A DNA stretch of 30,170 nt from the NCBI GenBank assembly GCA_009923965.1, contig RFSL01000001.1:1-30170 (forward strand). The letters run 5' to 3'. The notes beneath the pieces are model-generated. The model searched no databases. It was not told where the DNA came from and saw nothing but the letters and a program-made list of their open reading frames with translations. The position numbers and the translations under genes were made by a program. The stretch comes from Flavobacteriia bacterium. Its GTDB lineage: Bacteria > Bacteroidota > Bacteroidia > Flavobacteriales_D > Crocinitomicaceae. Shown here one piece after another: positions 2,012 through 16,581 of the stretch (its first letter is position 1; the number at the start of each line of letters is the position of its first letter).

Positions 2012-3460
2012 TTATCCGACACTTCCTTCTAAGCTAATCGCTAAAAGTTTCTGCGCCTCAACAGCAAATTCCATAGGAAGTTGGTTCAATACTTCTTTGC
2101 AATAGCCGTTTACAATTAAACTAATTGCTTTTTCTTCACTAAGTCCTCGCTGCTTGCAATAGAACAATTGATCTTCACCAATCTTTGAAGTTGTTGCTTC
2201 ATGTTCAATTTTTGCTGAGGGATTTTTACATTCAATGTATGGAAAAGTATGCGCACCGCAGGTATCACCCATTAATAAAGAATCACATTGAGAAAAATTG
2301 CGTGCGTTTTTGGCATTTTTATGAATTTGTACTAATCCTCTGTATGAATTTTGAGATTTTCCAGCAGAAATCCCTTTTGAAATAATTGTGCTTTTTGTAT
2401 TTTTTCCTAGGTGAATCATTTTTGTGCCTGTGTCAGCTTGCTGATAATTGTTTGTAACAGCCACTGAATAAAATTCCCCAATAGAATAATCTCCTTTGAG
2501 GATGCAAGAAGGATATTTCCATGTAACTGCAGAACCTGTTTCAACTTGCGTCCAAGAAATTTTAGATTTCCGTTCACAAATTCCTCTTTTCGTCACGAAA
2601 TTATAAATCCCCCCCAATCCATTTTTATCTCCAGGATACCAATTTTGAACGGTAGAATATTTTATTTCTGCATTCTCAAGTGCAATAAGTTCCACAACTG
2701 CAGCATGCAATTGATTTTCATCACGCTGAGGTGCAGTGCAACCTTCCAAATAGGAAACATAGGCTCCTTCATCTGCAATTACTAAAGTTCTTTCAAATTG
2801 CCCCGTTCCTCCTTCATTTATTCTGAAATAAGTTGAAAGTTCCATAGGACAGCGAACACCTTTTGGGATATAGCAAAAAGAACCGTCTGTAAATACCGCG
2901 GAATTTAAGGCAGCATAAAAATTATCTGAAGTTGGAATAACAGTTCCCATGTATTTTTGAACCAATTCAGGGTGCTCTTTAACCGCTTCCGAAAAAGAAC
3001 AAAAGATAATTCCAAGCTCACTTAATTTTGATTTGAAAGATGTAGCAACTGAAACAGAATCCATAACAAAATCTACGGCAACTCCTGTGAGTCGCATTTG
3101 CTCTTCCATAGAAATCCCCAATTTTTTCATTGTTGCTTTCATTTCTGGATCGACATCCTCCCAAGATTCATATTTCTTACTCTGTTTCGGAGCTGAGTAA
3201 TATGCTATTTCATCAAATTTTGGCTTCTCGTAATGCACATGACCCCATTCTGGCTCAGTCATTGTCTGCCAAACAGCAAATGCTTTTAAGCGGTAGTCCA
3301 GCATCCAATTTGGCTCTTCTTTTTTTGATGAAATTAAGCGAATAATATCTTCATTTAAGCCAACAGAAATTTTATCGGATTCGATATTTGTGACAAATCC
3401 GTATTTATATTCTTGATTTTGTAAATCTTTTTCTAAATCGTTTTCTGTATAGTTGCTCAT
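2012..3460 (-). CDS. sufB: Fe-S cluster assembly protein SufB
   Basis: [45 protein letters not shown] and EHEATTSKI motifs; 482 aa. Confidence 0.98.
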
Positions 3461-4029: not shown

Positions 4030-4620
4030 ATGAAACAGAGACTTTTATTTTTTTTAATACTGCTTTCTTCAATACTTCATTGCCAAACAAAGCAAGATAA
4101 ATTTGCAGTTGCTTATTTTGGAAGCGGTTGTTTTTGGTGTGTTGAAGCAATCTTTGAAAGTGTTAAAGGAATCGAATATGCTGAGTCGGGGTATTCAGGC
4201 GGTAAAGTTAAAAATCCTAGTTATAATCAAATTTGTACTGGAACTACTGGTCATGCCGAGACAGTAAAAGTAGTGTATGATCCCAAACTGATTTCCTATG
4301 ATGATTTATTAAGAGTATTCTTCAATTCTCACGATCCAACAACTTTAAATCAGCAAGGACCAGATAAAGGAACACAGTATCGCTCGGTTATTTTTTATAC
4401 TTCAAATGAAGAAAAAGAGAAGGCAAAAGGGTATATTCAAAAATTGTTGACAGCTAAAAAATTTAAGTCCATCACAACAGAATGTGTTGCCTTGGAAAAA
4501 TTTTATAAGGCAGAGGACTACCATCAAAACTTTGAAAGAGACAACCCCGATAATCCATATGTTATTTCTGTGAGTAAACCCAGACTCAACGCTTTTAAAA
4601 AGAAACACCTAAAAAAATAA
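4030..4620 (+). CDS. msrA: Peptide methionine sulfoxide reductase A with N-terminal export signal
   Basis: GSGCFWC active site, GYSGG, GHAETV, QGPDKGTQYRS and AEDYHQN; hydrophobic N-terminus MKQRLLFFLILLSSILHC. Confidence 0.96.
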   Translation: MKQRLLFFLILLSSILHCQTKQDKFAVAYFGSGCFWCVEAIFESVKGIEYAESGYSGGKVKNPSYNQICTGTTGHAETVKVVYDPKLISYDDLLRVFFNSHDPTTLNQQGPDKGTQYRSVIFYTSNEEKEKAKGYIQKLLTAKKFKSITTECVALEKFYKAEDYHQNFERDNPDNPYVISVSKPRLNAFKKKHLKK

Positions 4621-4622
4621 AA

Positions 4623-5207
4623 ATGAATAAAATTTTTCTAATTCTTGCAGTAATAATTGGTATTTTCTTTCTTTCACAATTAATTATGGCTTTTCAATCC
4701 GATAAAATCGAAACACCAAAATATACCGTTTTAAAAAAATACGATGAATTTGAAACTCGGCAATATGATACGATGATTATTGCCCAAACAATTCTTCCTT
4801 CTTCATCTTATGATGCTTCTTCAAGCATGGGATTTCGTCGTGTGGCATCTTATATTTTTGGTGGAAACGATAAAAATGAATCTATTTCAATGACTGCTCC
4901 AGTCTTTATGGAAATGGGAGACAATACAAAAATGGCATTTGTAATGCCAAAGAACTACAAATTAGAGGCGCTCCCAAAACCTAATTCAGGGGATGTGCAA
5001 TTAATTGTAATTGAGCCAAAAAAATATGCAGTGATAAAATTTTCTGGTTATGCTTCTGACGAAAAAATTAAAGAGAAAAGTCAAGAACTTCAAAATTTAA
5101 TTTCTCGTGAAAAATTAACTAAGGTTGGTACATTTCAGTATCTTGGGTACAATCCTCCATGGAAAGTTATTGGAAGAAAAAACGAGATTGCAGTGGAGAT
5201 AAATTAA
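4623..5207 (+). CDS. SOUL heme-binding family protein
   Basis: ETPKYTV, GFRRVASYIFGGN, ISMTAPV, MAFVMP and YNPPW...RKNEI motifs; N-terminal hydrophobic anchor or signal. Confidence 0.88.
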   Translation: MNKIFLILAVIIGIFFLSQLIMAFQSDKIETPKYTVLKKYDEFETRQYDTMIIAQTILPSSSYDASSSMGFRRVASYIFGGNDKNESISMTAPVFMEMGDNTKMAFVMPKNYKLEALPKPNSGDVQLIVIEPKKYAVIKFSGYASDEKIKEKSQELQNLISREKLTKVGTFQYLGYNPPWKVIGRKNEIAVEIN

Positions 5208-14008: not shown

Positions 14009-14908
14009 ATGATTTCGTCTCCAAACACCATCTTATTTTTAGTAAATCCTTTTGCTGGAAAAGGTAAAGCTATGTTAATAGCAAAAAAAACTATTGACAT
14101 AATACGGCAAAACGGCTATGAAACCGAATTGTTTGAAGGAAAAAATAAAGAGGATTTTTTAAATTTCACGACTATTTATGAAATAAATAAAATTCAGAAA
14201 ATTGCCGTTTTTGGAGGCGATGGTACAATGCACGATATAGTTAATGCGCTTATGCTAAAGTCAGAATGGCTTTCTAAACCACTTATGCTTTTCCCTTGTG
14301 GTACTGGTAACGCATTTTGTCACGATCTCGATTGTTTAAGTGTTGAAAAAGCGACACAACGCTTACTAAATGGGAAAGAAATGCTGGTTGATTTAGCTGA
14401 AATTAAAATGAGGGAAAATAGCATGTGGGCTTTTAACATTGTTGGTTGTGGACTTGTATCTCACATTAATACTTTAGCTGAAAAAATGCGTTATTTTGGG
14501 CCTGCAAGGTATAATATTGCAACGATTATGAAAATAATTTCACCCCCAGTATTAAAAGCTAAAATTTCTTTCAATGGAGAAATTTTTGCTAAAGATTATT
14601 GTTTTCTTTTAGCTTGTAACACCAGATTTACAGGAAAAGGAATGAAGATGGCACCTTTAGCAAAATTAAATGATGGACTAATTGATTTTTTAATTGTAGA
14701 AAAGACAACTCGATTGAAGCTATTAATGCTTTTCCCTAAAATATTTAGTGGAAAACATTTAAATAGTCCTTATTTGAGATATGTTCAAACAAATCACATA
14801 AAAATCGAAACTCAATATCCCGAAATAGTTAATATAGATGGCGAAATAAAGGGAAATACCTCTCTTGAAATAATAGTACACAAACAAAAACTAAAAGTAA
14901 TTTGCTAG
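14009..14908 (+). CDS. Diacylglycerol/lipid kinase family protein (YegS/DgkB-like)
   Basis: LVNPFAGKG, FGGDGTMHD, PCGTGN, NTRFTGKGMKMAP and VNIDGE. I prefer ATG 14009 to the track start at 13934. Confidence 0.9.
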   Translation: MISSPNTILFLVNPFAGKGKAMLIAKKTIDIIRQNGYETELFEGKNKEDFLNFTTIYEINKIQKIAVFGGDGTMHDIVNALMLKSEWLSKPLMLFPCGTGNAFCHDLDCLSVEKATQRLLNGKEMLVDLAEIKMRENSMWAFNIVGCGLVSHINTLAEKMRYFGPARYNIATIMKIISPPVLKAKISFNGEIFAKDYCFLLACNTRFTGKGMKMAPLAKLNDGLIDFLIVEKTTRLKLLMLFPKIFSGKHLNSPYLRYVQTNHIKIETQYPEIVNIDGEIKGNTSLEIIVHKQKLKVIC

Positions 14909-14916
14909 TTCAAAGC
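14853..14916 (+). repeat. 64-bp direct repeat, copy 1 (last 17 sense codons, stop and flank of the DAGK gene)
   Basis: gaaatacctctcttgaaataatagtacacaaacaaaaactaaaagtaatttgctagttcaaagc; base-by-base identical to 15919-15982. Confidence 0.97.
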
Positions 14917-15229
14917 ACTTGAAAAATCTATTAATACCGACGATGACACATAATGTCATATTAAAATCAAAAGAATATCATGTCGTCATAATACCAATAA
15001 GAATTTTGTATGCGATATATTGTATGGTAATTGGTACAACAAACTAATGGAAGAATCATCAAATTGGTAAAAACAGACGATGCTGGGCCTACTTTTCAAG
15101 GGAAGAAATTGAAAAACTAGAAAGTAAATGTTCATTACGATTACAAAATAGCGATGTCAGACAAATACGGAAAACCGAAAGTAAGAGGGTTTAAGAGTGC
15201 CGTTTATATTGAAAATTTGACTAACTATT

Positions 15230-15574
15230 TTACTCTTCGATTAATTGCTTTATTCTTAGTTTATTTTCAGGCAAATAATTAAGCGCAATATCCCAAATAA
15301 TATCATAATCAACGCCGAAATATTCATGTGAAACTTTATTTCTCAATAAATACATTTCGCTCCAAGGCAAATCCGAATGAATAGTTTTAAAGTCTTCCGG
15401 TAAATTTTTAGCTGCTTCTCCAATGATTTCAAAATTTCGAATAACAGCATCAACTGTTTTGTAATCTTGTTTGAACTTAATAAAAGTGTACCCTTCAATA
15501 TATTCAGCAATACGATCCATTACAAGATGTATATCTTCTAAATACATTTTGAATGAACGATTTTCTTTTTTCAT
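15230..15574 (-). CDS. hepT: HepT-like HEPN RNase toxin (DUF86)
   Basis: DAVIRNFEIIGEAAKNL and the RX4HXY motif LRNKVSHEYFGVD; TAATG-coupled to the upstream MNT gene. Confidence 0.92.
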   Translation of the reverse strand: MKKENRSFKMYLEDIHLVMDRIAEYIEGYTFIKFKQDYKTVDAVIRNFEIIGEAAKNLPEDFKTIHSDLPWSEMYLLRNKVSHEYFGVDYDIIWDIALNYLPENKLRIKQLIEE

Positions 15575-15864
15575 TAAACAAAACTAACCTGTTTTAAAAT
15601 CTGACTTTTAAGTTGTTCTTTTAGTGCGTTTTGTGTCACTAAATCTATTTTCTTTTTAAAAACAGATTCAAGAAAAAATTCAAGTGAAAAAAATTTCCAA
15701 CCAATAGGGTGATCCAAAACAACTAAAATATCAATATCACTTTCTTCCGTATTTGAAGAATCAGCATACGAACCAAATAAACCTATTTCTAAAACAGCAT
15801 ACTCTTCTCTAAGCATAGGTTTTAGCTCAATTAATTTTGCTAATATGTCAGCTTTTGAAATCAT
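15574..15864 (-). CDS. mntA: MntA-like minimal nucleotidyltransferase antitoxin
   Basis: GLFGSY...ESDIDILV (GSX10DXD) and KKIDLVT. I prefer ATG 15864 (MISKADIL) to the track start at 15912. Confidence 0.92.
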   Translation of the reverse strand: MISKADILAKLIELKPMLREEYAVLEIGLFGSYADSSNTEESDIDILVVLDHPIGWKFFSLEFFLESVFKKKIDLVTQNALKEQLKSQILKQVSFV

Positions 15865-15868
15865 TCTA

Positions 15869-15876
15869 CAAATATA
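15869..15876 (-). promoter_or_regulatory. -7 promoter element of the mntA-hepT operon, probably leaderless
   Basis: Minus strand TATATTTG-TAGA-ATG. Confidence 0.6.
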
Positions 15877-15918
15877 GTGATTCTTCAAGAAAAAATTCTT
15901 CCTAATCAGCATCGGATA

Positions 15919-15982
15919 GAAATACCTCTCTTGAAATAATAGTACACAAACAAAAACTAAAAGTAATTTGCTAGTTCAAAGC
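15919..15982 (+). repeat. 64-bp direct repeat, copy 2
   Basis: Identical to 14853-14916; flanks diverge on both sides (g vs a before; actt vs tttc after). Confidence 0.97.
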
Positions 15983-16009
15983 TTTCAATTGAATTAATTG
16001 ATTTTTTTA

Positions 16010-16017
16010 TATCTTTG
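16010..16017 (+). promoter_or_regulatory. -7 promoter element for tlpA-DUF6029-omp28
   Basis: TATCTTTG with a TTG at 15989-15991 (18-nt spacer). Confidence 0.6.
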
Positions 16018-16062
16018 AGCACGGCAGGGTTTTTGATTTTACTTTTCCTAAAATTTCCTAAA

Positions 16063-16581
16063 ATGAAAATATATCTTTCTTTTCTAATCATTTTTCTTTC
16101 TTTTTCTAATTATTTTGCGCAAAATGAGATAGAAAACAATGAGGCGATTACTAAAAAACTTCCGAGCGTAAAATTAAAAGATTACAAAGGGAAAGTTGTC
16201 AATACAGCTGAATTAGGGCTTAAAGGGCCTATTGTTTTTAGTTTTTGGGCGACTTGGTGCGCTCCTTGCAAAAAAGAATTAAATGCGATTAATGATCTTT
16301 ACAGTGATTGGCAAGCAGAAACTGGCGTTACATTAGTGGCGGTATCAATTGATGATGAAAAAACCAAAAGTCAAGTGGCTATTTATGTAGACGGAAAAGC
16401 ATGGGAGTACATTGTTTTACTTGATCCAAATGGAGATTTTAAAAGAGCAATGGGCGTTAACAATGTCCCTCATACCTTTTTAGTTGATACAGATGGAACA
16501 ATTGTTTATTCACACAACAATTATGCTCCTGGAGATGAAGAAAAATTATATGAAGAAATAAAGAAACTTAGCTTGAAATAA
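16063..16581 (+). CDS. TlpA-family periplasmic disulfide reductase
   Basis: Signal peptide (YFA-Q), FWATWCAPCKKEL, VAVSIDD and NVPHTFLVD. I prefer ATG 16063 to the TTG at 16015. Confidence 0.92.
   Translation: MKIYLSFLIIFLSFSNYFAQNEIENNEAITKKLPSVKLKDYKGKVVNTAELGLKGPIVFSFWATWCAPCKKELNAINDLYSDWQAETGVTLVAVSIDDEKTKSQVAIYVDGKAWEYIVLLDPNGDFKRAMGVNNVPHTFLVDTDGTIVYSHNNYAPGDEEKLYEEIKKLSLK

Follow-up and report, generated by a model that had tools for sequence, protein, structure and literature searches.

Long target duplications in restriction-modification systems are said to have been reported by Nobusato et al. in 2000. Insertion accompanied by such duplications is known for these systems, and the published criteria ask for more than 30 bp of duplicated target, less than 20 kb of insert without mobile-element genes, an empty site in a related genome, and repeats that run across a stop site (Furuta, Abe & Kobayashi 2010, PMC2853133). 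In the restriction-modification cases a stop site often lies within the repeats, and DNA breaks made by the cargo were proposed to bring the insertion about (PMC2853133); a review of 2013 still attributed this mode to restriction-modification systems alone (PMC3874152). Here, we describe an islet of a freshwater Crocinitomicaceae in which a predicted HepT/MntA toxin-antitoxin pair lies between two copies of the 3' end of a lipid kinase gene. The window, i.e., the whole stretch of DNA analyzed, comprises 30,170 nucleotides (contig RFSL01000001.1, positions 1 to 30,170; assembly GCA_009923965.1) of a metagenome-assembled genome (MAG) of 1.37 Mb in 330 contigs, 72% complete, hereafter the source genome (G000). 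The islet agrees with the published cases in duplication length, insert size, a single-copy empty site, the absence of a mobility gene, a low-copy repeat, and a spanned stop. In both, an addictive pair without mobility gene is bounded by long, variable repeats (more than 30 and up to hundreds of bp) that are unique in the genome and single at the empty site, and these repeats often span a stop codon, so that the neighboring genes remain intact. The cargo is what departs from the restriction-modification cases: here it is a putative type VII toxin-antitoxin pair with an RNase toxin, not a DNA-cutting system. Moreover, the modules described below stack with their own duplication lengths, and their junctions preserve fragments of other genes. 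We see an even chance that the islet is a non-autonomous insertion with a long (64-bp) target duplication, made of an addictive HepT/MntA pair and junk DNA gathered elsewhere.

Several other systems resemble this locus in part. The elements e14 and phage 21, at icd of Escherichia coli, carry a replacement 3' end of their target gene. Like the dehydrogenase, helix-turn-helix (HTH), and aspS cases presented below, they show a second, diverged in-frame 3' end and a pseudo-3' end at the far junction, but both are large, encode an integrase of their own, and use a fixed attachment site. Toxin-antitoxin cassettes, according to what Szekeres et al. reportedly found in 2007, stabilize integron arrays and repeat-rich regions. 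The likeness lies in addiction modules placed within repeat-bounded arrays, which they plausibly guard against deletion, whereas our locus has neither attC nor integron integrase and its separators are copies of host gene 3' ends. Cis-mobilizable elements (CIMEs), which show tandem accretion at a gene 3' end in the ICESt1 family at fda of Streptococcus thermophilus (Pavlovic et al. 2004, reviewed in PMC5704250), are also integrase-less islands bounded by gene 3'-end repeats and stacked in tandem. However, the att cores of CIMEs are short and constant, and CIMEs descend from known integrative and conjugative elements (ICEs) whose integrases act on them. At the kinase site, neither a cognate integrase nor a parent element was found, and each module has its own repeat length. 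As for the cargo itself, its domains and catalytic motifs, and the two-gene operon in which the antitoxin comes first, are those of described HepT/MntA type VII systems (e.g., PMC11586414), with no apparent difference at the sequence level.

The islet lies between perfect copies of a kinase gene 3' end

Two direct repeats, at 14853-14916 and 15919-15982, are identical at 64 of 64 positions and lie 1066 bp apart from start to start, with a 1002-bp insert between them in which both hepT and mntA are intact. Each repeat consists of the last 53 sense bases of the lipid kinase gene, its TAG stop codon (14906-14908), and 8 flanking bases. The target gene (14009-14908, + strand) encodes a kinase of the DAGK_cat/YegS_C type (PF00781, E = 1.8e-20; PF19279, E = 2.7e-27), which likely starts at the Met at 14009, the longest open reading frame (ORF) running from 13934. 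The left copy (+ strand) is the functional 3' end of this gene, with its stop and flanking bases. The right copy (+ strand) is displaced and non-coding, and is followed by the native upstream region of the gene for a tlpA-like thiol-disulfide oxidoreductase (16063-16581, + strand; PF00578 and PF08534), the undisturbed downstream neighbor, which is contiguous with the kinase gene at empty sites. The preliminary description of this DNA, made from the sequence alone, had pointed to perfect repeats, an integrase-less islet, and undisrupted neighbors, and each of these points is borne out: the pair matches PF01934 and PF01909, no recombinase ORF lies between the copies, the kinase keeps its 3' end, and tlpA keeps its native upstream region. 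Searched across the whole source genome, the 64-mer occurs twice only and is not a dispersed repeat.

Removal of one unit had been predicted to give a natural junction, and this junction exists in relatives. Eight genomes carry the kinase gene, half of them with an empty site and half with a filled one. In the four empty sites (G020, G005, G156, and G133), and in a 438-kb metagenome contig (L081), the kinase gene is directly followed by tlpA with a single repeat copy. The kinase gene is restricted to one clade (8 of 164 genomes of the genus) and adjoins tlpA only within that clade; when this gene pair was sought in 16 more distant genomes of the genus, the kinase gene was absent there. The target gene itself thus appears to be a fairly recent acquisition.

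The preliminary description had left room for an assembly artefact. Such an artefact could be a join that is collapsed or chimeric, or a free circle of 1066 bp mistakenly placed in the chromosome. The source genome is a fragmented MAG, and in its sequencing run the 64-mer forms a separate unitig at 12.6x, against about 9x in the flanks, which is not a clean 2x. Yet the same structure is present in an independent species-level MAG (G017, 98% identity across 2.6 kb), in G095, and in two contigs of the Joint Genome Institute (JGI), L084, with both copies at the identical 1066-bp spacing, and L078, which also has the islet. The two copies of G017 mismatch at 3 positions, so that each is phased to its own flank, and the right copy of G095, marked by a 6-bp deletion, is likewise tied to its flank. 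In addition, Logan unitigs of four lake-metagenome runs from four studies contain the 1.06-kb interior at about 99% identity or more, with islet-to-flank depth ratios of about 1.0 (X1), about 1.0 (X8), 0.7 (X2), and 0.45 (X12). The recurrence of the structure in independent assemblies refutes the artefact, to which we assign a negligible probability.

The summed depth over the kinase 3' end, which adds up other organisms and is not a copy number, is raised in X8 and X12 and may reflect multi-copy arrays. Two joints in the Logan contigs (k=31) are not credible, their sides being 21 and 23 letters long. Three public MAG records that bear the locus (L116, L121, and L123) are labeled "Chitinophaga pinensis," yet their locus is 97-98% identical to that of Crocinitomicaceae MAGs; the labels are probably mislabeled taxonomy.

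Modules are stacked between the kinase gene and tlpA

The kinase-tlpA interval of G095, G050, and ten metagenome contigs is occupied by modules, each followed by its own copy of the kinase 3' end, of characteristic length. The islet of the source genome, with its HepT/MntA pair, is one of these modules (M1) and is always trailed by a 64-bp copy. The copy behind M2, a module encoding an HTH protein, two lipoproteins, and an M43 protease, measures 209-217 bp, or 314-329 bp with a 104-aa gene included. M3 carries a different HepT/MntA pair, with a toxin 33% identical, and is trailed by 128-134 bp. Five orders were found: kinase-M1-tlpA, kinase-M1-M2, M2-M1-tlpA, M2-M3-tlpA, and kinase-M3-tlpA, and the right part of the M2-M1-tlpA array is 100% identical to the window. 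The existence of both M1-M2 and M2-M1 implies that they cannot both derive from one array through simple deletion. In G095, four copies of the kinase 3' end are spread over two contigs, and a 518-bp repeat made of the kinase 3' end and the A region is present in copies 4 kb apart.

All the copies share the last 64 bp. Their left extents range from 64 to 329 bp, their right extents are +8 or +41 bp past the stop, and the sequence next to them is unrelated gene debris. The kinase 3' end is a real recombination hotspot. Given its empty sites and its repeated use, it behaves like an att site, and in this respect the earlier proposal of a protein-coding att site stands. What speaks against an integrase-type element is the duplicated length, which varies from 64 to about 329 bp, and the lack of any integrase-bearing element at the site in 8 genomes, 10 metagenome contigs, and IMG/VR.

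The array of G095 (L071 6132-11154 and L076 138-4028, between kinase and tlpA) contains genes for an XRE-type HTH protein, an M43 protease with a tail of the type IX secretion system (T9SS), two KilA-N proteins, a collagen/Peptidase_S74 tail-fiber-like protein, and a protein with a T9SS tail. The second HepT/MntA pair always adjoins the same 99-aa HTH gene (G095, L082, and G008); given this constant adjacency, the three genes may form one unit.

The islet is a mosaic of an intact gene pair and debris

The islet proved to be a mosaic, in which a dispersed repeat of about 110 bp and a dead helicase 3' end accompany the intact HepT/MntA pair and 39 bp from a gene for a secreted protein. One proposal had been that it has shrunk to its addiction module, which does not fit a content that also includes a dispersed repeat and two dead gene fragments. 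The toxin gene hepT (15230-15574, - strand; PF01934, E = 2.1e-24) encodes a predicted HEPN RNase with an intact RX4HXY motif (RNKVSHEY) and has an alternative start at Met10 (15547). The antitoxin gene mntA (15574-15864, - strand; PF01909, E = 1.1e-14) encodes a nucleotidyltransferase in which the GS-X10-DXD motif reads GS-YADSSNTEES-DID. It likely starts at 15864, as the homologue of G008 begins at the equivalent Met, and the ORF is open to 15912. The stop of mntA and the start of hepT overlap at base 15574, forming a two-gene operon on the minus strand with the antitoxin upstream. Judging from domains, motifs, and operon layout, the pair is a predicted type VII toxin-antitoxin system, in which MntA would adenylylate the HepT tyrosine and so neutralize the toxin, and the data support its being a foreign islet without integrase. 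A motif resembling the -7 box of Bacteroidetes (TAnnTTTG, 15869-15876, - strand), read from the sequence 4 nt upstream of the mntA start, is a putative promoter; a scan for sigma-70 promoters and terminators gave no more sites than in shuffles. Homology with the G008 cassette stops at 15884.

The remainder of the islet is debris and a repeat. To the left of hepT and converging on it lies a pseudogene fragment with an internal stop (15048-15200, + strand), which represents about 45 codons from the end of a gene for a DEAD-box RNA helicase. This fragment is 74% identical in DNA over 114 nt to the 3' end of the helicase gene of G015, the translations align, and the helicase sequence has one match per genome across the genus. 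On the other side, 39 bp (15880-15918, + strand) are an internal fragment of a gene for a protein with a T9SS C-terminal sorting domain, with 91-92% identity to PF18962-bearing genes in G008:C29 and G095:C27. The homology extends 8 bp into the right kinase copy, leaving a junction microhomology GAAAT(A/T)CC, and contigs of run X2 with the intact T9SS gene diverge from the islet on both sides of exactly the 39-bp stretch. The source genome has no other copy of the islet interior, so the gene fragments were not copied from that genome.

The dispersed repeat, which we name A110 (14932-15040, + strand), has two conserved inverted-repeat stems. It is present in several copies (up to 5) in larger genomes of the genus and in a single copy in the source genome. 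Across the family, which has ATACC motifs, the stems are strongly conserved, and the copies usually lie just past gene stops, sometimes as tandem pairs; further ones are located at L073 3033-3149, L074 2798-3072, and L075 2498-2772. The family may be of the REP (repetitive extragenic palindromic) or MITE (miniature inverted-repeat transposable element) kind. Among 19 predicted pairs, there was essentially no covariation, and hence no evidence for A110 being an RNA. A scan of 14700-16100 against Rfam, with E up to 1, gave no match.

The age of the insertion bears on the earlier proposal of a recent integration, which is not demonstrable. The islet is common to three species-level genomes (G000, G017, and G095) and its divergence among them tracks that of the flanks, which indicates that the insertion predates these lineages. 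In G017, hepT (L004, G017:C85) has a GAA-to-TAA nonsense mutation at codon 53, and ATA replaces the first ATG; mntA is intact, and is thus an orphan antitoxin beside a decayed toxin. Chance or gene conversion may account for the two copies of the source genome being perfectly identical.

Junctions and recombinases at the kinase site

The left junctions fall at two points, one 8 bp past the stop and the other 41 bp past the stop, inside a MITE end. It is within this MITE end that the native flank joins M2 and M3, at the microhomology TTGATTTT. On its right, M3 ends in the dead 5' part of a large gene for a surface protein. The inner junctions look illegitimate, unlike conserved attP arms, and two features argue against a fixed attP, namely a duplication length that depends on the module and random fragments of other genes at the microhomologies. 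The islet and all array modules lack ORFs for an integrase, a transposase, or a resolvase. In G095 (99% complete) and G017, the tyrosine recombinases are three conserved Xer-like enzymes and one other, none of them encoded on array contigs. A 35-mer of the kinase gene had no match in IMG/VR, and no integrase-bearing element occupies the kinase 3' site in the 8 genomes, the 10 metagenome contigs, or IMG/VR. The comparison of the kinase-tlpA locus across relatives, which the preliminary description had proposed, thus yielded the empty sites it anticipated but not the larger elements with a tyrosine integrase.

These observations bear on the possibility that the islet is a CIME. An ICE, an integrative and mobilizable element (IME), or a prophage with a tyrosine integrase would have entered the kinase 3' end, its attP supplying the replacement end, and then decayed to its addiction module. 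Other elements would have accreted at the surviving att sites, and excision would require an integrase in trans. Repeats that duplicate the gene 3' end and are positioned as attL and attR at both ends of the islet would be expected under this scenario, as would the tandem accretion of modules at one site, a hallmark of CIME/IME tandems (PMC5704250), and the KilA-N and tail-fiber-like (Peptidase_S74) genes of the G095 array, which are likely of mobile-element origin. However, it is at odds with the lack of an integrase at the site in all genomes, contigs, and viral sequences searched, with a duplicated length that varies from 64 to 329 bp among modules, and with inner junctions that are random gene fragments at microhomologies where conserved attP arms should lie. 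Moreover, at least five target genes look alike without a nearby integrase, in genomes having only three or four tyrosine recombinases. We consider a CIME unlikely. The broader idea of a shrunken integrase element, put forward in the preliminary description, is accordingly supported in its structure and empty sites, and not in its integrase-bearing parent or fixed attP.

Duplications left by transposons are far shorter than 64 bp. With this length, and without terminal inverted repeats, of which none were found in the islet, the islet does not qualify as a transposon or MITE. Nor does it qualify as an integron gene cassette, there being no attC-like structure, no Rfam match, and no integrase nearby. 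A palindromic dif-like site, of the kind found in Xer/dif-type stacks, was not noticed on reading the 64-mer, on which no formal scan was made.

A MITE-like element measures about 390-430 bp, with terminal inverted repeats GAGTGTTCGC...GCGAACACTC, and also occurs in an internally deleted form of about 140 bp (L076 4054-4195). Full copies lie at C289 of the source genome (about 4640-5070, - strand), at L024 (about 4300-4690), and at L023 (about 2780-3140), and several contig ends of the source MAG are occupied by such copies. In G008, one copy separates hepT from mntA and another truncates a hepT. The source genome also contains, at C298 2283-2575, tandem units of about 114 bp with tRNA-like T-arm/acceptor sequence (TTCGAACCCGC...).

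A probable route through a single crossover

The most likely and most economical route to a non-autonomous insertion would be the following. In a relative, the donor segment would run from 64 bp before the kinase stop, through the cassette, and into the adjacent gene for a T9SS protein. Illegitimate recombination at the 8-bp microhomology would close the ends of this segment into a circle or, equivalently, produce a tandem duplication. The circle would then enter an empty site through one crossover in the kinase homology (Campbell-type, depending on the host RecA), leaving one copy that completes the kinase gene and one displaced copy ahead of the intact tlpA promoter region. Such a single-crossover route would explain the complete host gene, the truncated and displaced copy abutting debris, the module-specific duplication length, and the untouched neighbors. 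From then on, the kinase 3' copies would act as portable homology, and recombination between any two of them would add, lose, or reshuffle modules, giving rise to arrays. If the two perfect copies recombined with each other, the circle of 1066 bp foreseen in the preliminary description would be set free and the site would be empty again.

The same junctions could be produced without any transfer of a circle. Within a cassette-bearing genome, unequal or microhomology-mediated recombination would have duplicated in tandem the stretch between the kinase 3' end and some downstream gene, followed by deletions and by double-crossover exchange with cassette-free relatives. This would fit the microhomology junctions and the 518-bp repeat of G095, and it is formally the reciprocal product of circle formation. 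Nevertheless, it needs more steps, it cannot by itself explain the M1-M2 and M2-M1 orders in near-identical backgrounds, and it does not explain copies that resemble the orthologous 3' ends of diverged lineages. In-situ duplication therefore seems to us quite improbable.

Other genes show the same architecture at their 3' ends

Besides the kinase gene, at least five others in the genus, one of them in the source genome, show such a local duplication of their 3' end around cassettes of the toxin-antitoxin type, with no integrase nearby. In G008, a HepT/MntA pair of 82% identity sits at a 3-hydroxyacyl-CoA dehydrogenase gene (G008:C35), bounded by the true 3' end of that gene and by a duplicate of 70 nt with 84% identity to it. 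The M3 HepT/MntA pair of G008 is likewise bounded by the end of the 99-aa HTH gene and by a duplicate of 80 nt (G008:C29). Downstream of aspS in G103 come a DUF433 gene, then 101 nt duplicated from the aspS end, then a HepT/MntA pair of 72% identity. The source genome has a further case, a DUF4160/DUF2442 pair flanked by the 3' end of a 2-oxoacid dehydrogenase E1 gene and by a duplicate of it (about 108 nt, with 93-94% identity). This islet spans C65 1-2473 (L089) and the start of C20, the assembly being broken between them because of the repeat of about 108 bp. The pair is not present in G017, which is too diverged (78%) to be usable as an empty-site reference for the donor and recipient alleles at C65.

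In the older cases (dehydrogenase, HTH, and aspS), each copy retains an in-frame C-terminus that differs from the other's and a stop codon of its own, and the two resemble orthologous gene ends of diverged lineages. Differences counted by codon position in these old pairs are too few to decide the matter; the conserved amino-acid core alone is suggestive.

This recurrence raises the question of a dedicated mechanism, as yet undescribed, in which widely staggered breaks at gene 3' ends or terminators would be repaired into duplications of 50-300 bp, with addiction cassettes as preferred passengers. In its favor are the many gene 3' ends at which the pattern recurs and the orientation of the HepT/MntA cases, all four of which converge on the host gene. 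Small structured dispersed repeats (A110 and the MITE end) also lie exactly at left junctions, and for restriction-modification systems, too, the mechanism of insertion is unsettled. Against it, no conserved cassette ends were found, and cassettes of 82% identity are homologous no further than their ORFs. Each module has a fixed duplication length, which differs from that of other modules at one site, and the older copies differ in their C-terminal and stop codons as orthologues do, unlike a fresh duplication. We judge a dedicated mechanism very unlikely.

Weighing the proposed non-autonomous insertion

Several points weigh against a non-autonomous insertion by the single-crossover route. The first junction (AAAGCACT beside A110) has no clear microhomology. 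Neither the circle, nor an empty-site read, nor a recombinant junction has been observed directly, and unitigs with k=31 cannot phase a 64-bp repeat. The route would depend on DNA uptake or fragment circularization by these bacteria, and a trans-acting site-specific recombinase, e.g., a conserved Xer-like enzyme, is a possible agent in its place. Finally, a dedicated mechanism, and not selection, could underlie both the preference for gene 3' ends and the convergent orientation. In favor of the insertion are the empty and filled sites among close relatives, the modular arrays, the illegitimate inner junctions, the lack of recombinase genes, the recurrence at other genes, the older copies that resemble orthologous ends, and the agreement with the published criteria. 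In its favor, too, such direct repeats were seen around 8 of 30 HepT loci and none of 27 control loci of equal size, a contrast that overstates the case, since relatives are not independent and three of the eight are the same insertion.

Under a non-autonomous insertion, the role of the cargo would lie in persistence. With the circle lost, MntA would be gone and the HepT RNase unleashed, so that cassettes would persist where ordinary repeat-flanked inserts get deleted, and the repeat-flanked inserts that survive would mostly be addiction cassettes. HepT is an RNase and not a DNA cutter, and for this reason the double-strand-break explanation cannot apply here. The feature shared with restriction-modification systems is more likely addiction, which would protect repeat-flanked inserts against deletion.

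Implications

How chromosomal toxin-antitoxin pairs move without a mobility gene is an old and loosely answered question. Relative to the known mode of insertion with long target duplication, what is new here is the toxin-antitoxin cargo, the stacked arrays, the fossil junctions, and the recurrence at several genes. The kinase locus offers a natural series for testing one route, from empty sites and a single cassette to reordered stacks, a decayed toxin, and fossil fragments. More tentatively, and with more doubt than confidence, small addiction cassettes in Crocinitomicaceae, and perhaps widely, might amount to recombinase-free mobile DNA that captures gene 3' ends as portable homology, enters related genomes by single-crossover insertion-duplication, stacks at favored genes, and persists through post-segregational killing. 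If so, the life cycle that Kobayashi proposed for long target duplication would extend from restriction-modification to toxin-antitoxin systems, with addiction, and not DNA cleavage, as their common denominator. The locus shows abundant, streamlined lake bacteria building small hotspots of flexible genome at protein-coding genes without integrases.

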